From contig OX597814.1 in assembly GCA_951406725.2 (NCBI GenBank), positions 6,572,001 through 6,636,000 on the forward strand: a stretch of DNA of 64,000 bases, written 5' to 3'. The stretch is from Octopus vulgaris. Its lineage: Eukaryota. Below, one piece after another: positions 15,342 through 61,018 of this stretch; positions within the stretch are counted from its first letter, which is position 1; the number at the start of each line of letters is the position of its first letter. Made by a program: the position numbers and the translations under genes. The notes beneath the pieces were generated by a model. The model did no database searches and was not told the origin of the DNA. It was given only the letters and a program-made list of their open reading frames with translations.

Positions 15342-15429
15342 TGTGGCTGAAGATTGCTTTACATTTTAAAACTGATGTAATACTTACATTGTTTAATAAA
15401 ATGAAGTAGCATGAAACGATTGTACTACA
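15342..15429 (+). ncRNA. Type-I hammerhead motif with extended stem II
   Basis: tgtgg-CTGAAGA-ttgctttacatttta...taaaatgaagtagcat-GAAAC-GATT-GTA-ctaca. Stem I tgtgg/ctaca. Predicted site after A15424. Confidence 0.75.
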
Positions 15430-22973: not shown

Positions 22974-24891
22974 ATCATAATCATCGTTTAACGTCCGTTT
23001 TCCGCACTAGCACGGGTTGGACGGTTCGACCGGGGTCTGAGAAGCCAGGGGCTGCACCAGGCTCCAGTCTGATCTGGCAGAGTTTCTACAGCTGGATGCC
23101 CTTCCTAATGCCAACCATTCCGCGAGTGTAGTGGGTGCTTTTTACGTGCCACCTGCACAGGTGCCTGGGGGGTCTGGCATATCATCGTTTAATGTCTGCT
23201 TTCCATGCTGGCATGGATTGGACAGTTTGACAGGACCTGGCAGGCCAGGGAGTTGTGCAGGCTCCTATTGTCTGTTGTAGCATGTTTTCTATGGCTGGAT
23301 ACCCTTCCTAATGCCAACCACTTTACAGTGTCCACTGGTGCATTTTTGCAACCCCAGCATGAGTGCATTTTATGTGGCACTAGCACCTGTAAGGGACAAG
23401 CCTGCATCTATGACTGACAGCAGTTTTACTTAAGTATGGCTGCGTTTATGTATGAATATAACTGTGTCTGTTTTCACTACAGTCACATGGTTATACATGC
23501 ACCTATGCACACACACACACACACACACATTACATCTAATGAAAAATGCACGAATATGAAATATAAAAGATAAAAGATGTTTCTTCCTCCTTTCTTACCT
23601 GTTTACTGCTCTAATTGGTTCTTAAATGAATTAAATTATCTGCTTTAGAATTAAATTACAAATGAGTGTTCCAGTAATAACTAGCTTAAAAGCTTTTAGA
23701 TGTTTGCCTTTCTCTCTTCTCCACCCAGTTTGTCTGTTCCTTTATCAACATTGATTGGCAGGTATTAAATAAATATAAAACGATATTACAATAAAATACT
23801 TATTGAATTGGGTCTCCTCTATGGAGTGGCCTATCTTTGAAACGTTCTCACATATTTGTTGAATTGTATTCTGTGGATGGTTTATGAAATGATTATCATC
23901 ATTATTATTTCTTTATTTGAAAAGAAAAGCAGGCTACTATTGTCAGACCTAAAAATTCTTTACAGAGGCTGTATTCCAACAAATTAGGAGAATTGAAAGC
24001 CAATTATAAATACTTTATTTGAAAATTTAAATTTGTTGAAGATGTATTATTTTATGCCAATTGAGATGCATTTGTTAACTAGACCCAAGAAAAATTCCAC
24101 AATAGAGAAATATTTTTTTTAATTGCGTTTCAAAAATACTGAGTAATTGAAGGAATAGGGATTTAAAATCTATAATAATAACCATTGTTTTGTAACATAA
24201 TTTTAAAAATATGTTTTTAACTGAATCCCTTTTTTTTTTTATTATTATTATTATTTGACTATTTGACTACAAATAGCTTTCAAAGCAGCAGTGGATATTA
24301 GGGAGGTGACTTCACAGAAATATGACACATATTTGTGTTGTTTGGAGAAAGTCATTAAATAATTACAGTCAGAACTCTGATGAAGTTCCAACAACAAAAG
24401 ATAAAAACTTGAATTTTTGTAATTGCTTTTCAATATAAATGTTATTATTTTATCAAACTGTTTGCTTAAAACATGTTGTTACTAATTCTTTAACCCTTTC
24501 AAATCCAGAACCCCTGCTGATCCTCTTATAAAACTCTTCCATACCACTGGCTTTACTGTAAAATTTTTCTGATAATGGTGATCTGATTATTCTAAGATCC
24601 ATTTTACTGAGGGTCAAATTTAGTGACTTGAAATTAAATCTTTTTAAGAAAAATGCTTTCATTTTTCTTCTTTCTTTATTGTGATAACTTTTAATAGAAT
24701 CTTTATTTTACTGAATTATGTTCTGCTTCTCTGTTAATAAAACAGTTTTTTTTTCTGTGTTTTGTTTGTATATAACCCCCTTGTTTTTTGTTGGGTTTTT
24801 TTTTCAGTCAAAAGTTCTTTCTCTCTGTTTAAATGTTTAAACTTTATTTCTTAACTGCATAAAATATCTATTTCTGTATTCTTATTTGCAG

Positions 24892-25055
24892 CTTTTCTGC
24901 TTGGTAATGAAAGTGTAGAAAAACTTTCTGATATCAAGATGTTAGTGTCTCAGTTATATAGCTCACTAAACATTGAACAGTACCAATTAGAAAGAGAAAA
25001 CGATTTGCTACAGAGGTTAGAGGATCTTAAACTCCAACTGGAACCACTAGAAAAG
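24892..25055 (+). CDS. MCU: MCU internal exon (coiled-coil CC1 region), 164 nt, phase 1 to 0
   Basis: Acceptor ttatttgcag| and donor AAG|gtaacg. Translates FLLGNESVEKLSDIKMLVSQLYSSLNIEQYQLERENDLLQRLEDLKLQLEPLEK, which aligns by eye with vertebrate MCU (LNDVKTLVQQLYTTLCIEQHQLNKERELIERLEDLKEQLAPLEK). Not in the ORF track. Confidence 0.95.
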
Positions 25056-28000
25056 GTAACGCTTCCCTTCTTTTTGTTTCTAAATTAAAATTTAAAGTCA
25101 TTCTGATTAATTAATAAATTTATAGCAGTTGAATTGTTTTGATAATTTAAATTACATTTTCTAAATTGTTTTTAACCTTAAAAATGTTAATACTTCTTCA
25201 AGAAAGTTGTAAAATATAGACATTATTTTCCACACAAGCTTTTAATTATATTCCAACAATCTCAGAGAGTCCATAAAATAAAACACAAGAATAGAGAATG
25301 GCTCACTTTTGCTGGTTGAAAAGTGAGTTTAGTGAGAGTTAATGTTTATTTAGACTTGATGGAAATATCAAATTCTTATTGTGCAACTGTGTCCACTCCT
25401 TGCTAACACCATACTTACTCCTTTTCTGAGACCACACACAAGAATTTGTACCTCTGTTTTTTGGCTTATCAAAAACTTAACTAAGTCCTATGCCTTCATC
25501 TTGTCACTTGTACACAGCACACAACTATTCCTCTTTGCTCCAACATCTCTTCAATCTCACCTGACCTACATCTCATAGTTATTGATGGTAGCCTGAAGTT
25601 TTAAACCATTCAGGGAGAATAAAGTGTGTCAACAGTATGAGAGTCTGTGGGACTGTTTTGGTCACATCTGAAAGGTTTCACACTGGTCAGTTATTTCCAG
25701 CCAGAGATAATATGATTTATTGTTTCCTCTCCATCTTCACATATTCTGCAGTTACTTGTTATGTTTCTTTTCCTTGTATGTTTTTGGTAATTTCTGGTGG
25801 GGAGGCTTTGGTCTTGTGCTGCAATTAAAAATCCTTCAGTCTCTGCTTTAAGTCCTGAGCTTCTTGGCCATTGTTAGGATTTTGCTTATTCTCTTTCTTG
25901 TTACTATCACCACCAACACCATTATTATTATTATTACTAATCTGTGAGTGTTGGTACTATAATAGCAAAAATCAGGTTTTAAATTTATCTTGGCAACTTT
26001 TGGTTATGGAACTGTAGAAAACGTATATATTTGACTATCGAGAAGTGGTGGAGTGTGATATGGCCTTGTCCCATGTACAGAGCTTCAAGTCGTCCAGGAA
26101 GGGGTCATACCCAACAATTGGTGTAGCAGCATTTTTATCAACAGCCACAAAGATGAAAGAGAAGCCTTGGACAAAAATAAATATGGACATATCAGATTAC
26201 TAGACCAGGTCATGAAAGGTACAGAAAGGGTCATAGGTCAAGTAATTAGAAAGAGAGGGATGGGATGAAGTGGTGAAGAATGTTCTAAACAAAGCTGAGC
26301 TTCACAGGGGAGATGACGAAGGACTGAGACAAATGGCAATTTGCTAAAATTTTAGCTGCATAAATGGTGTGATTGCCAATAGTCAGGACAATAACTTGTG
26401 TGTCTAACAGAGATTCAAAGTAAACTTTCAAAAAATATTTCAGTAAATAATGCTATTGTTGCCCAACTGGTGAACAGCCAAGGAGAGAAAGCACATGCAG
26501 GAGTCATCATCATCATCATCATCATTTAACGTCCATTGTCCATGCTGGCATGGGTTGGATGGTTTGACCAGGGATGGCATGCTGGAAGGCTGCACCAGAC
26601 TCCAGTCTGATTTGGCAGGGTTTCTATGGCTGGACGCCCTTCCTAATGCCAACCACTCTGAGAAAGTAATGGCTCTTTTAACATGCCGCTGGCATGGGTG
26701 CCATTTTGCCTGACCCCAGTATCTGCCACAACTGCAATTTTGCTCAGCTTGGTGGGTCTTCACCACTCTGAAGAAATCGGCCAAAGAAGAATGATTTGTA
26801 AAAGTACAAAATCACGGTGGTGCTCCAGCATGACTGAAATGAATAAAAGAGTATATATATGTGTGTGTGTGTATTATGTAGGTGTGTGTGTGTATATACA
26901 CACACACACACACATATCATTCCTTTCTAAATTTTCATTTCTTTCAAAATGAAACTAGCTATTATTTCAGAAGATTTATTTGGTTAAAAGGGAAACATGT
27001 AATTTTCTTGCCATTGACCTAAATGTTTTTACAATATTTTAGCTTGTTTTAATGAACATGGTAATTAGGAGCATTAGCATTCGTTAACTTTTCCACTCCT
27101 TTGCATAAACATCTCTGTCCCTCTCTCTCTTTCATTATAAGACTCCTTCAACCGAAATTCTTTTCTTATCATCCATAATGAGTTCCTGACCGAATTCTTC
27201 ATCAGTGATTGTTTCCATCATCACCTGCTTTTCCTGCCCAGACTTCCATTTTACCCCTAATTATCAGAGTCAGCATGTCATTATTTCTATCTTTCCCTTC
27301 CTCACACTGTCTTTAACCGTGTGATGTGTTTGGGGTCCCTGGACCTCAGGCAACCTGTGTCAAAGAGTGTCTCTGCTACTTTTAATCTGAATCTGATTTC
27401 TATGTAAACCTAATTTTATGCTCCCATCCTGCTATGCACTGCCCCCTACATTGATCCCCTTTCAATCAATTCTATAATGTATTAACTTTAAGCATTCTAG
27501 GAAGATAAGGTCCCCCAAACCAAATTGCTGGGTAAAGATTTATTAAACTAACTTAATCCCCTTAAACTTTTTTGATATGAACCCACTCACTGGCTTTATA
27601 TGAACCTCCCTGTTTTAAAGGGACCTCAATTAAAGCCTTCTTCCATCAAAATTTCAGGTTAATTTGTTCAAAACCCCAGTTTGATAACAACAAATCTTTT
27701 TTCTTGAATTATTCATTAATTTCATAATTAGTTGAAGTAAAAACAGTGTATTTCAACAGAAATATGGGTGCAAAGGGGCTAAACTTGAATTTTGTTGTTT
27801 TGTCTTTTGTTTCATTTGCTCTGCTGGTAGGGACTTGGCTCAAGACCCTTAAAGGCTCTCAATGAGTATGATGTAGTTTAGGTTTACATTTCTCTTGATT
27901 AGTTGGAAGTTGCAGGACAGCAACTTAAGCCTGTTCTCATACAGCACCAGACTTCTTAGTTAACCTTTACAGTAGTAGTAGTGGACATAACAGAAAGGGT

Positions 28001-29543
28001 TTGTTGCGAAATATTTTGTTGCCGCCTTGACTGGCTTCCGTGCCAGTGGTACGTAAAAAGCACCAACCGATCTTGGCCGTTTGCCAGCCTCCCCTGGCAC
28101 CTGTGCTGGTGGCACATAAAAAGCACCCACTACACTCACGGAGTGGTTGGCGTTTAGGAAGGGCATCCAGCTGTAGAAACATTGCCAGATCAGACTGGAG
28201 CCTGGTGCAGCCTCCTGGCTTCCCAGACCCTGGTCAAACTGTCCAACCCATGCCAGCATGGAAAGCGGACGTTAAACGATGATGATGAGTGGCAGACAAA
28301 ACCAGTTTTATATAGAACTGGAATTAGGTTGGTGAACAAAGACAGCCATATACACACACACACACGTATAACAGGCTTCCACACAGTTTCCATTTACCAT
28401 GTTCACTGTCAAAGCATTGGCTAGTGCAGTAGAAGACACATGGCTATGGGGGTTACGAGGTAAGCTTCTTCATACGGCTGTGCCTGCACTCACACACGCA
28501 CACAAATAGGGAATTGTATCCCTTCGCTTCTGCTGGTTACATTCCCCCCTCCCTACCTCTCATCCCTTTCCCTACACTATTTCCACCAATCACCTCCTTT
28601 CTCTGCTTTCACTCACTGTTCTCCCCCCCCCTCCACTATACTCCGTTCTTAATACTCTCACCTGCTTTCATTTTCAATTTCCTTTCATATCTATCTCCAT
28701 GCCCCTTGATGTATCTCTACATCTTCCTCTCTCCATTGCCTCTACTCCTTGCACACCAACCCACTGCTTTCTGATCTATCCACCTTCCTGAACCACCCCT
28801 ATATCTCTTACCTTATTCCCCTTCAACCACAGCCCCCATCCTTGTTCATCACCCTACTCCTCACTTGGCCCCTACCATGATCCACTGTCCATACCCACTC
28901 TTTCTTATTCCTTCAGCATTTATTCTAGCACCTCATTGCTCTCTTCCTTTCATCTCCTTCAGCCGTGTATCTCTCCTCTATAGCAAAACACCTGTACTTG
29001 CCCCTCTGCCCTTCTATCAGCCTATCAACCCCTGGCACACAGTCACCCATCTCTTTCTTCCCATCTCAAATACTCCCCCTCTTGGTAGTTGGAGCTTCTT
29101 CTTTGTCCCTGTTTTTTTCCTGTCTTGTCAGTTTACGTAGCAACCTCACTTGCGCCAATGGCAGGGGGGGGCAAAAAAAATCACCCTATACACTCTGTAA
29201 AGTGGTTTGGGGCTTGACACATTTGCGCAGCTTGCTGGTTCCTGTCAACCCAAGTCAGTCGGGAAAAAGTTGTTAAATGATGATGAAATAGAGATTTTAC
29301 TTCAGTCTAGTCAGTCTCTTGCTACTCTAAGTGTTGCCTGTTTGTCCAACCCATGCCGGCATGGAAAGCGGACATTCGATGACGACAGAAATGATGATGA
29401 TGAGTTCACAAAATTTATAACTTGTCTGAAGATCCTGTGTACCAACTAGCGAAAATTAGAGTCACAAAAAACTAACTTGACAAATAAAGCTTACCATTAA
29501 TCTCTACTGTGGTATTCAGAAGGCTTTCATTTCTGACACTTAA

Positions 29544-29597
<54 letters not shown>

Positions 29598-29602
<5 letters not shown>

Positions 29603-30420
29603 TCGTAAGCCACTACACACATTTTTTTCTCTCCTTGTTTTTTTCTGTGTCCCTTTCTGTAGAAGAGCGTAGGCTCAAAACATAAAAGACTTTTTCTATT
29701 CCTGAGCGTTATACTAATACATCTGTTTGTTATTTACACCACCTGTCTTCGTCTTTTGTTATATATATATATATGTATATGTGTGTATATGTATATGTGT
29801 GTATATGTATATGTGTGTATATGTGTGTGTGTGTATATGTATGTGTATGTGTGTGTATATGTATGTGTGTGTATATGTATGTGTGTGTATGTATGTGTAT
29901 GTGTGTGCATATTTATGTGTGCATTTGTATGTGTATGTGTGTATATGTGTGTATGTATGTGTGCGTATGTGTGTGTGTGTGTGTATGTCTATGTGTGTGT
30001 CTGTATGTGTGTGTGTATATGTGAGTCTGTATAGACATACACACACACACATACGCACACATAAATATGCACACACACATACATATACATACACACACAC
30101 ATACATATACACACACATACATATACACACACATACACATACATACATATACACATACACACACACATACATACACACACATATACACACATATACATAT
30201 ACACACATATACATATACACACATATACATATACACACATATACATATATATATATAACAAAAGACGAAGACAGGTGGTGTAAATAACAAACAGATGTAT
30301 TAGTATAACGCTCAGGAATAGAAAAAGTCTTTTATGTTTTGAGCCTACGCTCTTCTACAGAAAGGGACACAGAAAAAAACAAGGAGAGAAAAAAAATGTG
30401 TGTAGTGGCTTACGATCTAT
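29598..30420. repeat. ~820-bp inverted repeat: ~165-bp apparently identical outer arms plus mirrored TG/CA microsatellite
   Basis: atagatcgtaagccactacacac... versus ...gtgtgtagtggcttacgatctat. Centre near 30030. Confidence 0.95.
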
Positions 30421-30434
30421 CATGGCGACTGATA

Positions 30435-30480
<46 letters not shown>

Positions 30481-31113
30481 CATACATATACACACACATA
30501 CATACATACAATGTAGATTGGATTAAAATCCAAGTTGTGTCCTCTTGAAGCAATCTTGCTTATTTCAGTATTTCAAATCTGTGGATGTTATATTTGTGTG
30601 AAATATTCACAAGAGTTGAAAACTCTGGGAAATATTTTTTTGCAGAGTAATGTGTTTCATTTGCAGGAGATGCAAAACTCTGTGTGTTTGATGAACATAA
30701 GAAATTCTTCTGAGAGAGAATCAAACACTACATTCTCAGTCTGAAGAATTTCCAATAAGAGATATTTTGCCTGTCTTCTAATATCTGTACAGTTTTGTAA
30801 TTCCTACTAGCTAATGAAACATGTGTAATGGTGAATAAATAATGGCAAAAAGTTTTCCAATCTCCTGTTTTTTACACACACACACGTGTGTGTGTGTATA
30901 TCACCATCATCATCATCATCGTTTAGCATCCGCTTTCCATGCTAGCATGGGTTGGATGGTTCAACTGGGGTCTGAGAAGCCAGAAGGCTGCACCAAGCCC
31001 AGTCTGATCTGGCAATGTTTCTACGGCTGGATGCCCTTCCTAACGCCAACCACTCCGTGAGTGTAATGGGTGCTTTTTATGATCCAAATAAGCAACAAGG
31101 ATATCCAAGGTAG

Positions 31114-31201
31114 TGTAGTACAATCGTTTCATGCTACTTCATTTTATTAAACAATGTAAGTATTACATCAGTTTTAAAATGTAAAGCAATCTTCAGCCAC
31201 A
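31114..31201 (-). ncRNA. Type-I hammerhead motif, inverted copy of 15342-15429
   Basis: tgtagtacaatcgtttcatgctac...agcaatcttcagccaca is the reverse complement of 15342-15429. Confidence 0.75.
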
Positions 31202-32098
31202 TATAGAATTGTTTTAATTAAATGGACAATGTACATTTTTATACTTATTTCATTTGCCAACATTATATATATATATAAAACAGTAACCGCTCGAAAAACT
31301 TTATATCTCGTTCAGAGATTTATTATTATATATATATATATGAGAGAAAGAGAGATGAGCAGGGAAGTATTTTTGGTGACCAATGGAAGTAGTTTTGGAT
31401 GCAGGAAATAGGGAGGATTAGCAGTGAAGTCTCCCATATTTTAGTTAGCATCTCCCTTCATTTTTAGTTGGGTCCATGATACAGATACAACCAGTGGATA
31501 TCTTACTTTAATGATTTTCCTTTGTAAGATAACACAGTTTTTTAAAAGCTCTGTGAATGTAAGATAAAATCATAAACATTGCTAAATAGGTTTTTTCCCC
31601 CTTGCCCCCCCCCTCCTCAATCACACATTCACAATCACCAAATTGTAGAATTGTGAACATCTCTATATTTTAATAGACTATGTTTAGATATCTTAGGGAA
31701 ACTGACACAATTTATGTTGAGTGGTTTTTGAAAATGAAAAAAAAAAAACCCAAAAAAACTTCGAGTGGTGTACGACTTGCAATCTATCAAGAAACAAGCT
31801 TTTACAGAAATGAAAGTTTTATTTCATTTCTGCCATCAATAAATATTAAATGACTGCAAAGTGGTTCCTACTGCAGCAGCACCAGTGTTTGGCAGCAGAG
31901 TATTCCTCTTTTACTTGTTTCAGTCTTTTGACTGCGGCCATGCTGGAGCACCGCCTTTAGTCGAGCAAATCGACCCCAGGACTTATTCTTTGTAAGCCTA
32001 CTACTTATTCTATCGGTCTGTTTTGCCGAACCGCTAAGTTACGGCGACGTAAACACACCAGCATCGGTTGTCAAGTGATGTTTGGGAGACAAACACAG

Positions 32099-32137
<39 letters not shown>

Positions 32138-33968
32138 ACAAAGTTGAGTTGTGGGGTATCGCACGAGTGGAATTATATACGAAAGAAGGTTTGAAAATGC
32201 AATTTAAAAGATGTTTATTTACTTTACCGGTTTCACTCTTTGGAAAAAGATTGTCAAAAGTAACATGTGGAAGTTTGGTTGCGTTAATTATTGGTTGTTG
32301 CAAATTGCTACATTACATATATATATACAGTCTTTGGTAACAGGGACATGTTATGGACATAAAAAAGTACAACAGTATGTTGAGAATATAAAGAGGTTTA
32401 ACAAGCTCATTGAAAAAATGGGCAGAAAAGATTAAAACAAATATATTATACATCTCAGGGTAATTTCCAGGAGAAATTATTAAAAAAGTTCAGTACAGAA
32501 TATTATGAATTCAAAAAGATTTACATTAATGTAGTGCTGAGGTTGTTACTGACCTGTCCGTTTTCGCAGAAATATATATATATACGACGGGCTTCTTTCA
32601 GTTTCCATCTACCAAATCCACTCACAAGGCTTTGGTCGACCTGAGGCTATAGTAGAAGACACTTGCCCAAGGTGCCACACAGTGGAACTGAACCTGGAAC
32701 CACATGGTTGGTACACAAGCTACTTACCACACAGTCACTCCTGCGCCTGTTGGTTCCTGTTGGTTTCACTTCAAACTTGGTAGGCTCCTGGCACTCCATC
32801 AGTTGTGTCAACTAATGTTCCAGTTGAGCCAACCAACGGAACAGCCAGTTCATGAAATTCGCATGCAAGTGGCTGAGTACTCCATAGACATGTTTACTCT
32901 AAATGTAGTTCTCAAGGAGATTCAGTGTGACGCAGATTGTAACAAGGTACAATACGGGTTTTCCAACTGATTGAACTGGAGCAACGTGAAGGAAAGTGTC
33001 TTGCTTAAGGACACAAGGCATCGCCAGGAATCGAACTCACAACTTTATGATTGTGAGCTGACTACCCTAACCACTTAGCTTCATGCTTTTCACTCTCATC
33101 ATCATTCAATATCTGTTTTCCATGCTGGCATGGGTTGGATGATCTGACAAGAACAGGTAAGGCTGGGGGCTTCACCAGGTTCCGTTGTTTGTTCTGGCCA
33201 TAGTTTCTATGACTGGACGCCCTTGTACAATGCATAAGATGACATTTCCATCAACTGGCGCCATCCTTATAATTATTAGATGAATACTCCATCTAGGGGA
33301 GGGGAGGTGGGGCTCAAAGAGGCCACAAACAAGAAAGATTACTTCAATAAAATCAGTTAATCCAAAATTTTGAACACATTAGACAATGTAGGCAGGAGAT
33401 GGCAACTGGTTAATGTAATGAATAGGATTGGGTTTCCACCTGTATAGGGAAATATCTTCAGAACACAGAATGCTGGTTTTGAGATGGTATCCACCTAAGA
33501 CTGAGGGTCAGCAGTGTTTGTGTGTGTGTGTGTAGTGAGAGAGAGAAAGTAGTGGCGCTGCTATGATTTTCAGCAACACAGCTAGAAACGTATTCAGAGG
33601 AGTTTTTTTCTGTTTGATAAATATAAGCTCAATAGGAGTTAACTCCCATGTTGTGTTTTTACCTTTTAGATATCAAAAGGGAGTTTTTGTATACTAATAA
33701 CTTACATAGCTTAATTCAACTGAAATTTCTCATTCTTTGTATTATGCACGTGAGACAGTATTTCGCAGAAAGAAACCAACCCTGAAGCATTTTTAGTCAC
33801 CCTTTATTGATATTTATAACAAGTGTCTCTATTTTCTCTCTCCCCACTTTCCAATCCCATAATGTAGGTTTAAGACCCTACTGCAGGGCATCATGGGCAA
33901 GTGTCTTCTACTGTAGCCTCAAGCTGATCAAAGCCTTGTCAGTGAACTTGGCAGACAGTCTGAACAGC

Positions 33969-34022
<54 letters not shown>

Positions 34023-34526
34023 CCTTTCTTTTATCTTTTACGGGTTTCAGTCAGAGACTGAGGCCATGCTGGTGCACCACCTTTACTGCATCCGAGGATT
34101 TTTCCAGTATTGCTTCTGGTTTATGAAACTAGTTCTGTATTCACCACGGTAACTTTAAAATAAACTTCATTCATCTCAACCACATTCTACAATCATTTCA
34201 TCTCAAGGAGATTTGCCAATGTTTTATTGAAACATTGATCATTCAACACACAGGGAAGATAAGGTTTTTTAACCGCTCTTCTTCCTCTCTCTATCATCAT
34301 CATCGTGTAACGTCTGCTTTCCATGCTGGCATGGGTTGAGCAGTCTGACTGAGGATTGGCAATCCAGAACGCTGCACCAGGCTCCACTCTGATCTGGCAA
34401 GGTTTCTACAGCTGGATGCCCTTCCTAATGCCAACCATTCTGAGAGTGTAGTGGGTGCATTTTACGTGCCATTGGCACGAGGGCCAGTTGGGTGGTACTG
34501 GCATCAGCCATGACAATGATTTCTAT

Positions 34527-34565
<39 letters not shown>

Positions 34566-35183
34566 TACATACAAATTATTTATATATATATATATTAATA
34601 AAAGGAATTCCAACCTTGTCTGATTTTCAAATTTTATTTACAATCTTATAATGATATAAGATAATATAATATAATATAATAAAATAAAATAAAATAGTAG
34701 AATGTTAAATGTTCATTCTGATTGAACTAGTACTTTCATGCATTAAATTCTGCAATCTTCAGGTTCATGTAGTAGTGGTGACAGTCATGCTTCACAATTT
34801 TTGACTGTAGCGAGATGATTGAATCTGTGCCTTAAATACAGCTGTGTAGGCTCCAGATTGCTAGGTTTTGCAAACTGTATTCTGACCAATCTGTGTAGTA
34901 TCACTCAATTACTTAAGCTGATTGGTTTAGGCGTCATGCTTTGTTGGACATGTCAAGAGTCCTGTATCTTAACCCTGGCCGAGGCAGCATTTGTTGGGCT
35001 ATTTTTAGAAATGTTGTAAATAGCCTTTGTCAGAGATTTTTATATTTTTATATTTCAATTGTCATCATCATCATTGTCAGCACCATAATTATTGTTGCTA
35101 GTGGTGATGGTGGTGGCAATAGAACTTTTAACCCTAAATAAGATAATTTTCCTGCTATCTAAGTATTATTATTATTATTTTTT

Positions 35184-35478
35184 ATTTAGCTTGGGTTCGA
35201 ATTTATCAATAAAATTCTTTTCTCTGATTTTCCTCTCGATTTCACTTGGGCTGTGTAATTTGTAGAATGGAAATATATATATTTTTCCGACCACATGTTG
35301 CTAGGTGGTTACTCAAAGGTATCTGACGGACATCTGGGTCTCTAATCTGTTCTTGGTGTACACGTGAGCATTCTGATAGTGCATTTCCCGTCTGACCTAC
35401 ATATATTTCTTCACAATTTGGGCATTTGATACAGTAAATTAAATTTCTGATTTTGCAGTTCGTATTCGCGCTAATGAT
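35184..35478 (-). mobile_element. Penelope-like GIY-YIG endonuclease fragment (different family), one frameshift
   Basis: Manual translation: NCKIRNLIYCIKCPNCEEIYVGQTGNALSECSRVHQEQIRDPDVRQIPLSNHLATCG / FPFYKLHSPSEIERKIREKNFIDKFEPKLN. Missed by the ORF track. Confidence 0.88.
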
Positions 35479-35572
35479 CTAAGTGATATGATATATATGT
35501 AAAAAATGTAATATATAAATAAATATCTGTAAATATAAACCATCCGATCTTCTAATTACCTCATTTCTTCTA

Positions 35573-35635
<63 letters not shown>

Positions 35636-35643
35636 CATATATG

Positions 35644-35707
<64 letters not shown>

Positions 35708-35710
35708 GAA

Positions 35711-36372
35711 TCATCATCATCATCATTTAGCGTCCGCTTTCCATGCCTGGTTTCCTAACGCCAACCACTCCGAGAGTGTAGTGGGTGCTTTTTACGTGCC
35801 ACCCGCACAGGTGCCAGACGGAGCTGGCAAACGGCCACGAATGGATGGTGCTTTTACGTGCCACCGGCATGGGGGCCAGGCAAGGCTGGCAACGGACACG
35901 AACGGATGGTGCTTTTACGTGCCACCGGCACGGAGGCCAGACGGGGCAGCGCTGGCAACGGCCACGATCGGATGGTTCACTTAACCACAGCTGCAGTTTC
36001 CATTGAAGTTGAGCGACTTCGATTTTGGTTCTGCTTTCTGATATCTGATTTGATTTGGTTTGATTTTGATTTGATTTGATTTGATTTTCACTTGTCTCAA
36101 CGGGTCTTCACAAGTGGAGTTTTGTGTCCCAAGAAGGAAAGGTATGTAGGCCACAGGTTATGTTCTCACTGGTCTTGCCGGGTCTTCTCACGCACAGCAT
36201 ACTTCCATAGGTCTCGGTCTCTAGTCATTTCCTTGGTGAGACCTAAAGTTCGAAGGTCGTGTTTCACCACCTTGTCCCAGGTTTTCCTGGGTCTACCTCT
36301 TCCACTGGTTCCCTCAACTGCTAGGGTGTGGCACTTTCGCACACAACTATCTTCAGCCATTCTCGTCACATG
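35711..36372 (-). mobile_element. RTE-clade LINE 3' end: RT C-terminus, 3' UTR with ~60-nt tandem units, (GAT)n tail
   Basis: ORF HVTRMAEDSCVRKCHTLAVEGTSGRGRPRKTWDKVVKHDLRTLGLTKEMTRDRDLWKYAV is contiguous with the common repeat tail, which identifies the parent element. Confidence 0.88.
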
Positions 36373-36690
36373 AATATTAGAAAAAAACCCACTTTTTATC
36401 AATTCAAAATGAATAATTAAATTACACCATCTAGAAAATTATATATAATAGAAAACTTAAAATTAAAATGACAATTAAAAAGTAAAGATTAAGTAAATTA
36501 CAAGAATAATGTAATGTATAAATTAGGTTTTTCTCCCTATTTTATACATTACATTATTCTTGTAATTTACTTAATCTTTACTTTTTAATTGTCATTTTAA
36601 TTTTAAGTTTTCTATTATATATAATTTTCTAGATGGTGTAATTTAATTATTCATTTTGAATTGATAAAAGGTGGTTTTTTTCTAATATTC
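36372..36690. repeat. Near-perfect AT-rich palindrome, ~150-bp arms and ~18-nt loop
   Basis: gaatattagaaaaaaac...gtaatgtataaa / tttatacattac...ttttttctaatattc. Confidence 0.95.
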
Positions 36691-36776
36691 TATATATATT
36701 ATATTGTGTGGAATTTGATTTAGTATTCCTAAATTGAACTCTTTTTCCTTGTAAGTTTGGATTTTATTCTCTCAGA

Positions 36777-36809
<33 letters not shown>

Positions 36810-36812
<3 letters not shown>

Positions 36813-37622
36813 ATCATTATTTAAATATCAATCTTATCAAGTGGCCAGCATGATACGCGCATATATATATGTATGTATGTATATATTCATATATGTAAGT
36901 ATTCGTATGTTATATATATATATATATATATTTGTATTTATGTGCTATCTGAGTATATTCCACTGATGAAAGCAGAGCATTTCTTATGCAGATCCAGAAG
37001 TCCGGGATCTGGGATTATCCAGTAATTTTTTGCTAGTTTATTTTGTCTTTTTGTTTTCTCTCCTGGTGCTGTATGAACATTTAATGTGGTTTTAGAGTCA
37101 AGTTTTGGCTACTATTTCCAGTGTGGTGGTTTCTCTTAGATACCCTAAATTATCATTTTAATAATAATTATTACCTTTGAAGGTTTTTATTCACATGCTG
37201 GCCACTTGATAAGATTGATATTTAAATTAACGATCTTATCCTTATTTATATAAATTTTAAATTTATTTCATCGCTGTATTTACTGAGGTGATGTTTTAAC
37301 CATATCACATGAGACGTTATAGGTGGGCAATGTAAACTGGTCGTGTGCATATATATATATGTATACGTTTGTATATGTAAGTATTCATATGTTATATGTA
37401 TATATATGTGTATTTATGTTACTTTCTGACGAGACAAAGCATTTCTTTTGCAAAGCCAGAAGTCTGGGATCTGGGATTATCCAGTAATTTTTTGCTAGTT
37501 TATTTTGTCCTTTTGTTTTCTCTCCTGGTGCTGTATGAACATTTAATGGGGTTTTAGAGTCAAGTTTCGGCTGCTATTTCCAGCATGGTGGTATCTCTTA
37601 GATACCCTAAATTATCATTTTA
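36810..37622. repeat. Tandem duplicate (~36860-37160 and ~37345-37622) with a short inverted terminal copy (36810-36852 / 37194-37239)
   Basis: gggatctgggattatccagtaattttttgctagtttattttgtc occurs twice; atatcaatcttatcaagtggccagcatg is inverted. Confidence 0.85.
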
Positions 37623-38107
37623 TATATGAGGAAAGTGAAATCAAATTCGATGACTGGCATCCGTGCTAGTGGAGCACTAAGAGCACCATTCGAGCGTGAT
37701 TGTTGCCAGAGCAGTAAACTGGCTTCTGTGCCGGTGGCACATAAAAAGCACCATTCGAGTGTGATCGTTACCAGTGTCACCTTACTGGCACTTATGCCAG
37801 TGGCACACGAAACAAACATTCGAGTGAGGTCATTGCCAGTGCTGCTGGACTGGCTCCTTTGCAGGTGGCACATAAAAAACACTTTTTGAGTGTGGCCGTT
37901 GCCAGTACTGCCTAACTGGCCCTCATGCTGGTGGCACGTAAAAGCACCCAATACACTCTTGGAGTGGCTGGCGTTATGAAGGGCATCCAGCTATAGAAAC
38001 TCTGCCAGATCAGACTGGAGCCTGGTGCAGCCACCTGGTTCGCCAGTCCTCAGTCAAATCGTCCAACCCATGCCAGCATGAAAGCAGACATTAAACGATG
38101 ATGATGA

Positions 38108-38920
38108 TATGTATGTATGCGTGTGTATATATCTATATATTTATGTATGTGTGTGTATATATCTATATATTTATTTTGTGTGTGTATATATCTATGTATT
38201 ATGTATGTGTATATATCTATATATGTATGTATGTGTGTGTGTGTATATATATGTATGTATGAATGTGTGTGTGTATGTGTATATATCTATATATGTATGT
38301 ATGTGTGTGTGTGTATATATATGTATGTATGTATGTGTGTGTGTATATATATGTATGTATGAATGTGTGTGTGTATGTGTATATATCTATATATGTATGT
38401 ATGTGTGTGTGTGTATATATATGTATGTATGTATGTGTGTGTGTGTATATATATGTATGTATGAATGTGTGTGTGTATATATATATATATCATATGTATG
38501 TATGGATGTGTGTGTGTATATATGTATGAATGTGTGTGTATATATATCTATGTATGTATGAATGTGTATATATCTATATATGTATGTTTGTGTGTATATA
38601 TATATATGTATGTATGTTTGTGTATATATATATATGTATGTATGTTTGTGTATATATGTATGTATGTCCATGCATATATGTATGTATGTCCATGCATATA
38701 TCTATGTATGTGTGTGTATATGTATCTATATATGTATGTATGTCCATGCATATATCTATGTATGTGTGTGTATATGTATCTATATATGTATGTATGTCCG
38801 TGCATATATCTACGTATGTATGTGTGGATATATCTATATGTATGTATTATGTATGTGTGTGTGTATATATCCCTATAGGTATGTATGTATGTATCTATGT
38901 GCGTGTGTATGTATATATAT
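38108..38920. repeat. Complex (TG/TA/TATG) microsatellite with higher-order ~40-80-nt units
   Basis: Read directly; it is the source of many spurious ORFs. Confidence 0.92.
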
Positions 38921-39007
38921 TATATAATATATTGTTATAAGAATTTTTTGCGTAATACGATAAAAAACCCAAAGCTGTGTAGATATTAGAGCATTTATAG
39001 ATAGAAG

Positions 39008-39063
39008 GTCTTACAGCTGTTTCTAGGATATTAATTAATTAATGATATCCCTTCATCAGAGAC
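39008..39063 (-). ncRNA. Minimal type-I hammerhead ribozyme, inverted twin of 39122-39177
   Basis: Reverse complement reads gtct-CTGATGA-agggatatcattaattaattaatatcct-a-GAAAC-AGCT-GTA-agac. Confidence 0.85.
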
Positions 39064-39121
39064 TGTGTGAGAGGAAAAATTAAGTCATAGTTTCGATGAC
39101 TTAATTTTTCCTCTCCACACA

Positions 39122-39177
39122 GTCTCTGATGAAGGGATAATATTAATTAATTAATATCCTAGAAACAGCTGTAAGAC
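39122..39177 (+). ncRNA. Minimal type-I hammerhead ribozyme, intact core
   Basis: gtct-CTGATGA-a-gggata...tatcct-a-GAAAC-AGCT-GTA-agac. Stem I gtct/agac, stem II gggata/tatcct, palindromic stem-loop III ACAGCTGT. Predicted cleavage after A39173 (GUA). Confidence 0.85.
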
Positions 39178-39430
39178 CTTCTATCTATAAATGCTCTAAT
39201 ATCTACACAGCCTTGGTTTTTTTATCTTATTACGCAAAAAATTCTTATATACACACATGCTGACATAGAACCAACGTTGAACCACTTATTCACAATATTA
39301 CCGAATCTGGAACTTAACTATGGTCTGTCTATAGCATTTATTCAGCCTTACCTGACACATTTGGGTCTCAATAACACCATTATCTCTTATTATATATTTT
39401 TATGTTACTTATACAAATTTCCCATTTTAT

Positions 39431-39520
39431 ATCTCTGAGGGGCAGAAGAGTTGTCTATAAATGCTTATCAATATAGGATTCTATTATAGGCACAACATTT
39501 CTGCGAAACGATTGTAAGAT
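39431..39520 (+). ncRNA. Type-I hammerhead-like motif with long stem II and one core substitution
   Basis: atct-CTGAGGG-gcagaa...ttctgc-GAAAC-GATT-GTA-agat. Stem I atct/agat; core position A9 reads G. Predicted site after A39516. Confidence 0.65.
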
Positions 39521-40727
39521 GCTTTAAAAACTTGATTCGAAACTGTCATATTTATTATTATATATTTATACTTATACATATTTACATGTATTTATATTTT
39601 TAATATAACAATTATTCTACACACGTATATATCTTTCTGAAGAATTTTCTGATATTGATTTCCTAATATCAATAATAATATATTATTAATATATATATAT
39701 ATATATAATCACTCGTATTAAATGCATAAATACTTTAATAGTATTAATACTTTGATACAATAGAGCACTCAATATAAATTCAGTGTAGAATATTCTCACT
39801 GAATATATTTAACTAAAGATTTACATGTATATATATATATATATCATCATCATCATTTAGCGTCCGCTTTCCATGCTAGCATGGGTTGGACGGTTCAACT
39901 GGGGTCTGTGAAGCCAGAAGGCTGCATCAGGCCCAGTCTGATCTGGCAGTGTTTCTACGGTTGGATGCCCTTCCTAACGCCAACAACTCCGGAGTGTAGT
40001 GGGTGCTTTTTACGTGCCACCGGCATAGGTGCCAGATGGGGCTGGCAAATGGCCACGGACGGATGGTGCTTTTTATGTGCCACCGGTACGGGGGCCAGGC
40101 GAGGCTGGCAACGGCCACAATCGGATGGTGCGCTGCTAAGATATCACAAAAACTGTTACTCAGACTTTCCTGTTCCCTTTTGTTGGACAGTTTTGGTATG
40201 TAAATAATATATATATATTTACATCTCGCTTAGAGTAAAATGTAGACTGTATGACGCATGTGTGCAAAGAGCCATGATACATGGTAGTGAAACATGGGCC
40301 ATGACTGCAGAGGACATGCATAAGCCTGCAAGGAATGAAGCTAGTAGGCACCGCTGGATGTGTAATGCCAGTGTGCATATACAAGAGTGTGTAAGTGCCT
40401 TGAGAAAAATGTTGGACATAAGAAACATCAGATGTGGTATGCAAGTGAGATGTCTGCACTGGTATGGTCATGTGTTGCATATGGATGAGCCTCAATTTGG
40501 AATGTCTGTCTACTGCCTCACCCCTACCCCTAACAGATACTTCCCTCTGTTCTCTCAGCCTTAGATATACAAGGGACTTGATAGACTAGTCTATAAATTA
40601 AAACTGACTCCATAAAGACAAAAAATCAGTGACAGGTAGAGTTTTCTTGATAATTTTAGTAACTTCTATGCTGAAGTAGAGAGACAACATGTTTTTTGTC
40701 TATCCCCTTAACTTCTTGGAGATTTAA

Positions 40728-41802
40728 CCCTTTCCATACCAAACCGCCCGAAAAAAATTTTGGTTAATGTGACCAAACTGCCCAAAGCCGCCCAAATTTA
40801 CCTGTTCATATTTAAATGAGAATATCAGAGCAAATCTCTTTAGTACATTTGTGAAAACACGTATTATACTTCTTAAAGAGTTCAACTATAGTTTTGTACA
40901 AAAATCGAAGTGTAATTTTAATTCCGTGAATTTTGGAAGATTTTTTTCCGAAATTTGTTCCTATTGTGTTTTCAAAATTTGTAATTCTGACAAAAAATGG
41001 ATACGAATTTCATTATATCAAGCAGCGAGTCAGAATTCGAAGGATTTTCTACTGAAGACCTTCATAAATCTAACTCTATGACTGAAAAAAAAAGCATGTG
41101 GTATTTGATAATGAATCTGATGTTTCATTTTCCGAAAGTGAAAACTGTGAATTCGAGATCTCCGACAGCGATAAAGAAAATGAATTGGCACCTGAATGGA
41201 GTGAAAATTTAAAAACTGTTTCTTTCGGTGATTTTTCTGAAGAAACTGGACCAAGCCACAGACTTTCCCAGGAGAGTAAAGCCTTAGACTATTTCTTTTT
41301 ACTTTTTCGAATGAGCCTGTTTGAAATCATTACGGCGGAAACGAACCGTTACGCTAAACGTAAACAAAACGAAAGAAAGGATAGTTTGTCGTTTCCCACA
41401 ACCTTAAATGAAATTAAGACTATTTTGCCATAAATATTATTATGGGTATCAGAAAGTTACCCAGAATAACAAATTCTATCTTAAAATTTTGTTGTATACC
41501 CAATTGAATATTAGCTAATAACCCATTTTCTATAGCGATGTTTGAACAAAATTTTAATAATTTTATATATTGTTGAATTTACCTGTATCTACCTGCAATT
41601 AGAGTCACTTTGTGACAAAAATTATAGTATAGAATTGGTTGAGAACATTTCATTAAATTATCTTCCAAAATTCATGTTAATATATTGATAAATAAAAAAG
41701 TTATAGTTGTTTAATGAAACCAGACTAAATTTATGATTACGTTAGAAATTAATTGAAACACATAAGGGGTGTATTTTGGTCAGAAATATAGTAACGAAAG
41801 GA
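40728..41802 (+). mobile_element. Non-autonomous piggyBac deletion derivative
   Basis: TTAA on both sides (40724-40727, 41803-41806) and imperfect TIRs ccctttccatac / gtaacgaaagga. Internal acidic N-terminal transposase remnant ...ALDYFFLLF..SLFEIITAETNRYA..PTTLNEIK / IIMGIRKLP. Confidence 0.88.
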
Positions 41803-41861
41803 TTAAGGTGTCATTATACTAGTGGGTCCATCTGTTCTAATCTAATTAAATTCTATGTCGT

Positions 41862-41950
41862 TGTGCAGCTGAAGATTGCTCTACATTTTAAATTGATGTA
41901 ATGATTGCATTGTTCAATTAAATGGAGATGCATGAAACGATCATGCAGCA
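41862..41950 (+). ncRNA. Degenerate hammerhead of the same family as 15342
   Basis: CTGAAGA-ttgctctacatttta...taaatggagatgcat-GAAAC-GATC-AT. The cleavage triplet is damaged; the downstream flank ggatatccttgttacttattt is shared with the 15 kb copy. Confidence 0.5.
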
Positions 41951-42174
41951 TGATCTCTGGATATCCTTGTTACTTATTTTGATTTTAATCACCTTACTTT
42001 GAAATTGTATGGATAATACCATACTAAATTTTGGTGCCTCAACTTAAGTACCATATTCATCTGAATCTAAATTTTTACTTACACACACACACATGTGGAG
42101 CCCTGGTCATCTGTTACAGCACTTAACCAGCATACCTGGTTGTTTAGGTCACCTATGAACTAAACCCCCATATC

Positions 42175-42213
<39 letters not shown>

Positions 42214-42215
42214 TA

Positions 42216-42251
<36 letters not shown>

Positions 42252-42358
42252 TGTATACCAGAGTAAGCACATAAATGCAAAACAAGGTGGAAAAAATAGT
42301 ACTCGAATACCAGAGGTAGAGTAATATGCTTTATTAATAAGCAGCCAAAATATCACAA

Positions 42359-42402
42359 AAACTTTTACTCGGAGCTTCACGTACCTGTTCGTCAGACAGT
42401 TT
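42359..42402 (-). ncRNA. Type-I hammerhead-like motif, inverted twin of 42420-42463
   Basis: Reverse complement reads aaactgt-CTGACGA-acaggtacgt-GAAGC-TCCGA-GTA-aaagttt. Confidence 0.6.
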
Positions 42403-42419
42403 TGTTTAGAATCTAAGCA

Positions 42420-42463
42420 AAACTGTCTGACAAATGGGAATTTGAAACCCTGAGTAACAGTTT
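42420..42463 (+). ncRNA. Type-I hammerhead-like motif (CpG-decayed core)
   Basis: aaactgt-CTGACAA-atgggaattt-GAAAC-CCTGA-GTA-acagttt, with 7-bp stem I aaactgt/acagttt. Confidence 0.65.
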
Positions 42464-42698
42464 TTGTGATATTTTTGCTGCTTTTTGATAAAGTGTGTGT
42501 GCGTGTGTACATATATATATATATATATATACTCTTTACTCTTTTCAGTCATTTGACTGCGGCCAAGCTAGAGCACCGCCTTTAGTCGAGCAAATTAACC
42601 CCAGGACTTATTAAGCCTTGTACTTAGCCGAACCGCTGAGTTATGGGGACATAAATACACCAGCATCAGTTAAGTGATGTTGGGGGCACAAACATACG

Positions 42699-42731
<33 letters not shown>

Positions 42732-42852
42732 GATGGACTTCTTTCAGTTTCCATCTACCAAATCCACTCACAAGACTTTGGTCAGCCCGAGGCTACAGTA
42801 GAAGCCTGAACCCGGAACCATGTGGTTGGTAAGCAAGCTACTTACCACACAG

Positions 42853-42895
<43 letters not shown>

Positions 42896-44464
42896 CACAC
42901 ACACACGGATGTGTGTCTGTGTTCGTTTTCCTTGTGTTCACTGGTTTGTAAGCTCCAATGACATTAGCTTCCTGCTAATGACATTTCTTTGCAGTCCTCC
43001 ATGAAAGGATATCCAAGCTTTCTGTCATGGTGTAACATGTGGCACAGTCTGTTAACAAAAGACTGCTTAAACAGTGTTTTTTGTATCCAGTTCATGCCGG
43101 AAGCATGTTTGCATTGTTCAGAAGAATTGGAGAGTATTATGTTTGTTCGTTCACTGCCATTCCCTCTGGTGTTCAAAAATTCCTCTTAACTCATTCTGTT
43201 AGTGTTGTCTTGCTCTGCTTGTTTTTAGTTTTTGAACATCTCTAGAGGTAGGTTTCCCTACTAACGGTTAGAAAATGTCAATCCATTGAAGATTTTTCAG
43301 TTTACTCCCCATGCGATGGCCTACAATATTTCAAAGAACTTCTGCTTTGGTGTACTTTTTCATTTTCAATTTAGGTGGATGCCATCTCAAAACCATTCTG
43401 TAGAACTTCAAAGGAATGTCTTTAAAATTGTCATAGTACAATGTCTTTAAATAATTTCATTGCCAACTGTGAAAGAGAAAATAATGTGATACCATTTGGA
43501 ATCTATATCTGATTTCAGTTTGGCAATCAAATTATCAAAATTCTGTAGAATAACTGAAAGAGAAGAGAAGACATCTTAGCTTGCCATTTCAGCCAATTTT
43601 TTTCTTTCTCTCCTCTCATAAATGTCATCATACCAACTGATCTTTTGTGTTTTTGATTTCTGATATGTTTAACACACAACTAGTTATTGCATATTTTATG
43701 TTTTGCACTTCACCATTTGTAAATACAGATTTCTTGCTGACACAGAATAATCATATTTGATCGTCAACAAAGTGATTAACGTGGATAACACCAGCTGTAG
43801 CTGCTTTAATTAGATTATCATACAACCGCCAACTTAGATTTCACTCACACATCTCGCAGTTAGATTCACATCAGTAAAATAATATAGAAGCTTCAACCGT
43901 TGGACTGTGGCAATACTGGGGCATCAACATCAATTATTATTATTATTATTACTATTTAGGCAGTGAGCTGACAGAATCATCAGCATACTGGGCAAAATGC
44001 TTAGCAGTATTTCGCCTATTTCTGCATTCTGAGTTCAAATTCTGCTGAGGTCGACTTTGCCTTTCATCCTTTTGGGGTTGATAAATTAAGTACCAGTTGA
44101 ACGCTGGGGTTAATCTAATTGACCCAGCCCCTCCCCCAAAATGGCTGCCCTTGAGGTAAAATTTGAAACCATTATTATTATTATTATTATTAATATTATA
44201 ACAAAGGTAATATACCACTGAGGAAGCCTGTATGAGATTTCATAGAATTAACAATTAAATTTATCTCCAATTACAAGCTTCCATCTTGAAACAAAAATGC
44301 AATATTTTGAATAATACAGTCCAAAATATGGTTGAAATGCCTTTGGTCATGTGATCAGTCAGGCTTGACCTGGGCCAAAACTATGATATAACATTTGAAT
44401 CCATTACAAATAATGATTTATGTTGTATATTTATCCCCTTTTCTAAAATTTTATTTCTGCGCAG

Positions 44465-44668
44465 GTAAAGAAAGATCTTGAAGTTCGTGCCCAAAGAAGA
44501 ACAAACATGCTCTCATGGCTTGGACTAGGCATGATGGGATTGCAATTTGGAATTCTTGCTCGGCTCACTTGGTGGGAATATTCTTGGGATATCATGGAAC
44601 CTGTAACTTATTTTGTTACCTATGGAACCACAATGGCCATGTATGCTTATTTTGTTGTTACTAAACAG
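44465..44668 (+). CDS. MCU: MCU pore exon (TM1, WDIMEP selectivity filter, TM2), 204 nt, phase 0 to 0
   Basis: Acceptor tttctgcgcag| and donor CAG|gtaaaa. Translates [68 protein letters not shown], containing the diagnostic MCU DIME motif. Confidence 0.99.
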
Positions 44669-49605: not shown

Positions 49606-49798
49606 ATAGGAACATGACAAATGCCTGCTAGCTCCTGATATTTCATGTCACTTTAACATGTAGCCATGCATTCTGGCCATCATACAACTGCCGATATATA
49701 AGAGACCAATCTTGCAATGAAGCTAGTTTCTATATCCTTAATTACTCTTTCTATGTCTAAATCAATTTGCCTAATGAGATTTCTATTCTCTTTTCCAG

Positions 49799-49996
49799 GA
49801 ATATAATTTCCTTGAAGTTAAAGACCGACAATATCTGCTGAGTTTCTACAAAAATGCCGAGAAAAAACGCCTGGACGTGCACAAGTATAACCACTTACGA
49901 GATGCTATTTCTCAGGTGGAATACGATCTTCTTCGATTAAGGGATCCTCTTCAATTACAGCTGCCTATAGGTCACATACAGAGGCAAAAGTCCTGA
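49799..49996 (+). CDS. MCU: MCU terminal coding exon (CC2 and C-terminus), stop TGA at 49994-49996
   Basis: Acceptor ttttccag|. Translates EYNFLEVKDRQYLLSFYKNAEKKRLDVHKYNHLRDAISQVEYDLLRLRDPLQLQLPIGHIQRQKS*, matching the MCU C-terminus (DRQYLL..F, KYNQLKDAI, LKRLRDPLQ). In frame with the previous exon. Confidence 0.97.
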   Translation, partial: EYNFLEVKDRQYLLSFYKNAEKKRLDVHKYNHLRDAISQVEYDLLRLRDPLQLQLPIGHIQRQKS

Positions 49997-60059: not shown

Positions 60060-61018
60060 AGATACTTGGTACTGTACTTGATACTGAACTTTGGTTAGAG
60101 ACTGTGAACAATAGAGTGCTGCAGCTCCACTCTTATTACATGAAACCCGTAACTTCAAAATATGTTCTTCACAAGAACTCAGCTTTGTCACACAACATAA
60201 AAATTAACATACTAATAGCAGACCTAGTTAGAATAATGAACAATGTGTCCCCACTATGTGAACCCTATGAAACGACAAAACATATACAGAACTTCATGCA
60301 CCGCATTCAGTTCTCTGGATATGATCAGAAAGATAGGGTTCGTGTATACAGGGGGAGGGGCTAGAAAGAAACTAGGTAACATACGTAATGATACCAGTAG
60401 TACCTGCCCTAGATATAGAAACAAAGAATGGAATAGGATACAAAGCACTTGTGACAAAGCAAACAGGACGAACACGTGGTATAAAACCGACAAATATCAA
60501 GGAGTGATGTTTGTAGGGGCCACAGCCCATGGAGAGCTAGCCCGTAGATTTAGAAAAGCTCTGAAGGAGACCAAACTCAACATTAAAATTGTTGAAAAAC
60601 CAGGGAACTCCGTCAGATCACAACCATGTAGGACGACGTATCCCTTTAAGAATACTATATGCACCAATGATAACTGCATGGTATGTAGGATTAGCCCTGG
60701 CATTAACTGTAGAACTCGAAATGTATTTACAGCATAGGATGCTTTGAAGGTGCCTATAAGGACATGGACATGACGTACATAGGGGAGACATCTAGGAGCA
60801 TAGCTGAAAGACTAAATGGACATTTGAGACAATATGACAACAAAAAACAGTCCTCCATACTCTACCAACATGCCAAAGACCACCATGGAGGTAACTTGGG
60901 TCAACTTGACATTCACATCTTTTCCAAGCACCCAAAAGACCCAACACTCAGACAAATACGGGAGTATGTCTTTATAAATGAAACCTCCCCAATACTAAAT
61001 AGGAAATATACACAGTAA
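60060..61018 (+). mobile_element. Penelope-like retroelement fragment: RT C-terminus, Cys-rich linker, GIY-YIG endonuclease (frameshifted; resembles the Naiad type)
   Basis: Consecutive ORFs give MKPVTSKYVLHKNSAL..RIQFSGYDQKDR, then VMFVGATAHGELARRF..IKIVEKPG..PFK..C..NCMVC..NCRTRNV, then YIGETSRSIAERLNGH..LYQHAKDHH..LRQIREYVFINETSPILNRK. Confidence 0.9.

Follow-up and report, generated by a model that had tools for sequence, protein, structure and literature searches.

A palindrome in an octopus MCU intron as a probable head-to-head insertion of a hammerhead-bearing Penelope-like element

The mitochondrial calcium uniporter (MCU) gene of Octopus vulgaris harbors, within one of its introns, a palindrome that very probably consists of two 5'-truncated, hammerhead-bearing 3' repeats of an abundant Penelope-like element, placed head to head, likely by one insertion event, and likely neutral. 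We analyzed this palindrome within a 64,000-nucleotide stretch of contig OX597814.1 (assembly GCA_951406725.2, positions 6,572,001 to 6,636,000), hereafter the window, to which all coordinates refer unless another locus is named. Both arms belong to a dispersed family with many copies, they are asymmetric, they meet at a short microhomology, and pairs like them recur elsewhere in the genome with varied junctions. The palindrome is likely a by-product of insertion rather than a switch for the gene that contains it, and it is a new instance of a known Penelope by-product, head-to-head pLTRs and opposite-strand hammerhead pairs being already in print.

Two outward-facing repeats in an MCU intron

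The inverted repeat comprises arms at 38936–39088 and 39096–39249 around a 7-nt loop (AGTTTCG, 39089–39095). The preliminary description had reported back-to-back hammerhead motifs in one palindrome, both pointing away from this loop, and the sequence of both arms confirms it: the arms, of 153 nt, are ~96% identical, matching at 147 of 153 positions with five substitutions and one 1-nt gap (96.1%), and each carries the series GTCT CTGATGA A GGGATA..TATCCT A GAAAC AGCT GTA AGAC directed outward from the centre. The whole hairpin folds at −231 kcal/mol (z −43), a value that none of 100 shuffles equalled.

Comparison with other members of the family revealed that the palindrome is asymmetric and larger than first described. 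On the minus strand, 38936–39098 is an inverted 5'-truncated pLTR copy that has the short family 3' end (..TTCTTATA) and includes the 7-nt loop; on the plus strand, a sense 5'-truncated pLTR copy with the long family 3' end occupies 39096–39392, its family sequence running to about the latter position. The right arm exceeds the symmetric end by ~140 nt, while the left arm ends at the earlier family end, and the excess forms a tail (39250–39392, plus strand), the stretch of family sequence that separates the short 3' end from the long one and that is present on one arm only. Because the minus-strand left copy continues through the loop as family sequence (CGAAACT; the same variant lies upstream of the arm at loci L014 and L030), the loop is the part by which the inverted copy extends further at its 5' end, and it is confined to that copy. 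Comparison with family upstream sequence also showed that the 5' ends of both copies have the trinucleotide ATG in common, a microhomology at 39096–39098. The insertion site lies at a TA/TG-rich microsatellite tract (38080–38935), and no target-site duplication was discernible in the sequence flanking the palindrome.

Long palindromes are a known class of assembly artefact, and a fold-back chimeric read would yield such a structure. That origin is extremely improbable here, however, as the asymmetric arms show 6 differences in 153 positions and stop at the two natural 3' ends of the family, and as 52 similar pairs are present at other loci.

MCU exons were mapped on the plus strand at 24891–25058, 44465–44668 and 49796–49993, with the exon at 44465–44668 matching solved MCU chains (E 4e-30) and Octopus MCU proteins (100%). 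Because mapped exons lie on either side of it, the palindrome is placed inside a 19.4-kb MCU intron (25059–44464, plus strand, between the first two of these exons). A 48-nt exon at 11828–11875 (plus strand) corresponds to the additional segment found in MCU isoform X2 (P0009) and is apparently an alternative exon. Two further inverted arrangements were observed in the window. An identical sequence occurs at 15347–15424 (plus strand) and 31119–31196 (minus strand), 16 kb apart and flanking an MCU exon, and a common GC-richer repeat is present in opposite orientations (37653–38018 and 39869–40131), ~2 kb apart, on the two sides of the palindrome; these copies could pair as a second, weaker intronic duplex.

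Each arm contains a minimal type I hammerhead motif, at 39008–39063 in the inverted copy (minus strand) and at 39122–39177 in the sense copy (plus strand), where the predicted cut follows 39173. The sense motif is composed of stem I (39122–39125/39174–39177), CUGAUGA (39126–39132), stem II (39134–39139/39155–39160) and GAAA (39162–39165), and displays the features of minimal type I PLE hammerheads, namely a CUGANGA/GAAA/NUH core, helices I–III, an unpaired base after A9 and a palindromic loop III. Helix I has 4 bp, and helix III has 2 bp with the palindromic loop (dimer type). In both arms the G10.1-C11.1 pair directly preceding G12 is absent; pair 10.1-11.1 is instead a G-U, with an A inserted between it and G12. 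The hammerheads had initially been called intact, and although the core nucleotides named in support are present in both arms, the 2-bp helix III, the G-U pair and the extra A, together with the CCGAUGA core of most relatives, make that term too strong. The hammerhead fold of the monomer is predicted at −4.0 kcal/mol, compared with −8.9 kcal/mol for the minimum free energy structure. Rfam returned no hammerhead at gathering level in the whole window, and around the site at E ≤ 10 it likewise returned no hammerhead, just miRNA-like and other weak hairpins, all below gathering. Another small hammerhead-like motif, belonging to a different family, is present at 6412–6442 (minus strand).

The repeat family and its hammerhead core

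Searching the octopus genome with the arm yielded 2,281 candidates, of which the 40 that were scored are 90–94% identical outside this locus, and a 17-mer around the 5' core has 3,006 exact matches genome-wide (control, 0). Relatives extend the arm sequence >1 kb upstream and ~140 nt downstream. A Cys-rich linker and a GIY-YIG-like peptide lie upstream of one copy, and in 17 of 29 other loci found by the GIY-YIG-like peptide the arm follows downstream, on the same strand, within 1.5 kb; farther upstream, relatives contain thumb and RT-like frames with YRDD. At locus L100, coding pieces match residues 95–662 of a 671-aa protein (P0001) in order, with E values down to 3e-56, and the locus reads (TA)n, short-ended inverted arm, 5'-truncated RT-like/EN coding copy, long-ended sense pLTR, (TA)n. 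As this is the window's layout at full scale, we read the palindrome as a Penelope-like insertion. The Penelope-like origin suggested at the outset is thereby upheld, family copies adjoining RT-like and GIY-YIG coding sequence.

The GIY-YIG Pfam match in relatives has E values of 0.003–0.02, below the Pfam cut-off, and the Atlas neighbours of the protein pieces are clusters with GIY-YIG, HTH_animal and RVT_1, at 0.94–0.99. Pfam RT and PDB searches with the RT pieces of relatives gave no match, nor did a protein homologue search with an 89-aa EN piece, and the same kind of search with a 347-aa piece retrieved one unnamed protein. Among ten 9.9-kb regions, no copy was full-length with a direct pLTR at each end, and the longest copy, that of L100, is 5'-truncated. 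The order of EN+ PLEs, RT followed by a C-terminal GIY-YIG, was found in relatives but not at the palindrome locus; further EN+ PLE traits, a hammerhead in the pLTR and 5' truncation combined with an adjacent inverted copy and a one-ended tail, were found as well. Taken together, motifs, similarity to P0001 and Atlas clusters point to an EN+ Penelope-like element, with RT and EN calls that are weak by profile. The element likely belongs to the Neptune clade, which is marked by a Cys-rich, zinc-finger-like linker before the EN and by microsatellite targeting. In the octopus family the linker reads CxC-x6-C-x5-C and the flanks are (TA)n, the spacing not being literally the CX2-5CxxC of PMC8557442. 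Tandem units of the same element, as in the head-to-tail non-LTR retrozymes, were not found: the arrangement is head-to-head alone, with no further copy in the window.

At L062 (6567–7607) and related loci, an Asn-rich, (AAT)n-containing ORF insert separates the thumb from the endonuclease and resembles the N-rich inserts described for rotifer Penelopes in PMC3846280. The window also contains, at 60062–61018 (plus strand), the broken remnant of another, unrelated-looking Penelope-like element, whose GIY-YIG Pfam match (E 1e-5) is above the cut-off.

Among the 3,006 exact 17-mer matches, the core is CTGATGA in 1,112 and CCGATGA in 1,894, such that 63% carry U4C, and a CCAATGA core has 233 matches genome-wide. 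In the subfamily to which the window belongs (CCTA arms), CTG is again the minority (13 CTG versus 50 CCG). This is a successful Penelope-like lineage with a non-canonical hammerhead core, U4C, in the majority of copies. According to PMC3088659, U4C lowers hammerhead activity and 10.1-11.1 is among the most conserved pairs; a family amplified mostly with the core CCGAUGA would be a natural test of the need for the ribozyme. We considered CTG as mere CpG decay of CCG, an idea that the excess of CTG (1,112) over CCA (233) and the existence of CTG-dominated subfamilies speak against. Other subfamilies of the repeat have G-C at 10.1-11.1 with an inserted A or G, and an extra purine ahead of GAAA occurs across subfamilies (CCCA, CCCG, CCTG, CCTA). 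The motif's 3' half played no part in the selection of copies and is conserved across subfamilies with diverging flanks (25 sequences); the motif has therefore been kept at the level of the element.

Recurrence of head-to-head pairs and their 3' ends

Head-to-head 5' cores 40–70 nt apart were identified at 37 sites genome-wide (control, 1), one of which is not family sequence by eye, leaving at least 36 tight twins of the family whose spacers and junctions differ between loci. The cores of the 37 sites are CTG/CTG in 15 (the non-family site included), CCG/CCG in 19 and mixed in 3. Inverted family sequence lies on the 5' side in 24 of 88 position-ordered loci, these being the first listed 17-mer matches along the first contig after two duplicate loci were dropped and six listed matches excluded, in a design that oversamples pairs and undercalls divergent subfamilies (two known twins were missed). 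The near-perfect terminal inverted repeats within the coordinates first described, together with the TA flanks, would also suit a palindrome that moves as a unit, in the manner of a MITE or a fold-back element. We give this idea almost no credence, as no second locus with the window's junction was present among the loci fetched, most copies are solo, the right arm extends ~140 nt beyond the point of symmetry, and arms join RT/EN coding sequence at other loci.

Arm-arm identity (median 93.4% in 27 pairs; 95.4% for the MCU palindrome) is higher than the identity to typical family copies (89.8%) but not higher than that to the best sibling (95.3%), which points to a shared source and ordinary decay with no sign of a maintained duplex. 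Two further candidates were rejected. Pairs with arms from different subfamilies, as L208 and L225 seemed to be, are accounted for by deletions or truncation, and a small inverted second end at every insertion is absent in most solos (21 of 27 scored). The family's arms also occur tail to tail, a rarer orientation, at L064 (2251–2530).

Family copies end at discrete TATA-like sites. The short end lies 76 nt beyond the predicted cut, and the long ends follow it at distances of ~140 and ~160 nt. All of them match TATA-like words within the element, and in most cases (TA)n adjoins directly. From 241 loci, in a set from which 15 duplicate loci were dropped and for which 29 loci were chosen for having a tail, we obtained 52 head-to-head pairs. 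Thirty-six of these combine a short with a long end, none combines short with short or long with long, and 16 are unclassed, several of these being interrupted where the reference has a small duplication close to the long end. Solos comprise 14 short, 6 long and 1 unclassed, from which ~42% discordance would be expected by chance; at that rate the probability of 36 short-plus-long pairs in 36 is 3e-14, and at 50% it is 1.5e-11. The short-ended arm reaches further 5' in 20 of the 36 pairs, the window included, with neither arm containing the other; in four classified pairs the arms do not overlap at all, and in 14 of the 36 the long arm contains all of the short one.

Since non-nested arms contrast with the nested arms of a simple fold-back, we favor two primings on opposite target strands. 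We propose tentatively, judging the proposal a little short of an even chance, that head-to-head Penelope insertions arise from a two-ended reaction in which both target strands are primed, always with a different start site of the element RNA for each. The element's endonuclease would nick a TA-rich target on both strands; reverse transcription would be primed at one nick from the long start site and at the other from the short one, and the two cDNAs, each terminating early, would become joined at their 5' ends through microhomology. Such a sequence of events is in line with the both-strand extension, the two start sites and the predicted dimer of PMC11167929. An inversion by fold-back self-priming of the cDNA or of antisense RNA, with one arm later trimmed at the short end by the endonuclease, would leave the Penelope origin unchanged and strikes us as rather unlikely, though it has evidence in its favor: arms share private variants (in the window and at L100) and are more alike than random copies, and the 14 of 36 nested pairs are as it predicts. 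However, 20 of 36 pairs are non-nested and four are non-overlapping, and for these it needs the extra trimming step.

If correct, two-ended priming would replace the self-priming account of inverted pLTRs, and head-to-head pairs would make it possible to read from the genome the dimeric, both-strand activity observed in vitro. The strict short-plus-long pairing bears on the open question of Penelope inverted repeats and tails and is testable in the existing in vitro system. No paper found in the literature covered, which lay outside most subscription papers and Repbase, gives the short-plus-long rule, names the octopus family or treats Penelope twin priming.

The hairpin in MCU pre-mRNA and comparison with known systems

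The palindrome had first been interpreted as a self-silencing or bidirectional ribozyme cassette. One element of that interpretation, that the antisense arm comes first in any transcript and would trap the motif, is supported by modeling, which gives the hammerhead stems in context a probability below 1e-17; the arms would form a ~150-bp duplex in MCU pre-mRNA and mask the motif. The accompanying suggestion that A-to-I editing restores activity fared less well, as simulated editing keeps the inter-arm duplex far below the energy of the hammerhead fold. With 25% or 50% of As made unpairable, ~120 or ~80 inter-arm pairs remain, and at 50% the hairpin is still at −76 to −88 kcal/mol versus −4 kcal/mol for the hammerhead. 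The hammerhead core contains seven As, and the chance that all escape editing is 13% (at 25%) or 0.8% (at 50%). The strength of the remaining duplex and the seven core As make rescue by editing unlikely. No same-sense hammerhead partner for the motif was present within the window and, given that the motif is of a dimer-dependent type, there is probably little activity to silence; as modeled, the single motif could probably hardly cleave alone.

A selected self-silencing or editing-switchable cassette that regulates MCU, or selection that tolerates active sense intronic hammerheads when a twin masks them, is in our judgment very unlikely. Both arms do retain CUGAUGA, the minority state in this subfamily, the core and stem I are free of the six differences between the arms, and masking is thermodynamically certain. 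However, about one core difference is expected at 4% divergence, so that finding none is unremarkable, the arms are copies of a dispersed repeat, and simulated editing leaves the duplex closed. In addition, no cleavage by single minimal PLE hammerheads was observed in PMC4209133, and the anole one is protein-dependent (PMC11167929). Nor are canonical cores enriched in twins (p 0.32–0.63). The predicted association between core integrity and an inverted twin was not found in comparisons made irrespective of gene context and with limited power: canonical cores showed no enrichment among twins in the 88 ordered loci (10/42 versus 14/46, p 0.63; 4/19 versus 20/69, p 0.57) and in a further set (9/54 versus 3/30, p 0.52), and twin arms had canonical cores in 31 of 72 cases (p 0.32 against the genome). 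This lack of enrichment in small samples suggests that the palindrome is likely neutral. The intronic duplex may undergo editing, as any inverted repeat may, and would be removed with the intron. Its relevance for MCU regulation is most likely none; it provides an example of Penelope insertions seeding long duplexes in octopus introns, where they could serve as substrates for editing.

In L1 twin priming, priming of the second strand leads to a 5' inversion with junction microhomology. There the inverted part is upstream and non-duplicated, whereas most octopus pairs duplicate the same 3' region. Closer to the octopus family are other EN+ PLEs. Inverted pLTRs with palindromic junctions, head-to-head as the usual form and with a tail on one inverted pLTR, are described in PMC3846280, where self-priming is proposed, and the same inverted-pLTR scheme is drawn in Fig. 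2 of PMC8557442. Adineta vaga Pen2a (PMC3846280) resembles the octopus family in having an inverted 5'-truncated pLTR beside a direct one, a palindromic junction, a one-sided tail, a microsatellite target and 5' microhomology. Its tail is 30–40 nt long, compared with ~140–160 nt in octopus, and, unlike the Pen2a scheme in the text available, octopus copies are truncated to the hammerhead region alone with no target duplication seen. The palindrome also differs from the non-LTR retrozymes of bioRxiv 10.64898/2026.07.22.740005, which are head-to-tail tandem units each with a hammerhead, in being head-to-head.

With regard to the motif, the octopus hammerhead shares a 4-bp helix I, a long helix II, an unpaired base after A9 and a palindromic loop III with the metazoan PLE minimal type I hammerheads of PMC4209133. 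It differs from them in a G-U for the conserved G10.1-C11.1 in this subfamily, in a purine inserted ahead of G12, and in U4C, present in 1,894 of 3,006 exact matches, variants that the supplementary alignments of that paper may hold. The same paper reports dual minimal hammerheads on opposite strands, ~100–700 bp apart, for Schistosoma, as well as low cleavage by dimers and none by a single minimal motif; the dimer dependence of minimal hammerheads is reviewed in PMC6765202. In Anolis Poseidon (PAc; PMC11167929), hammerhead cleavage depends on protein and is dispensable for insertion in vitro, both target strands are cut and extended, two RT start sites have been mapped, and a dimer is predicted. 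PAc and the octopus family have in common AT-rich targets and discrete internal 3' ends that define the tail; in octopus, as distinct from what the available text describes for PAc, each arm of a pair has one of the two ends, and these ends fall on the element's TATA-like words.
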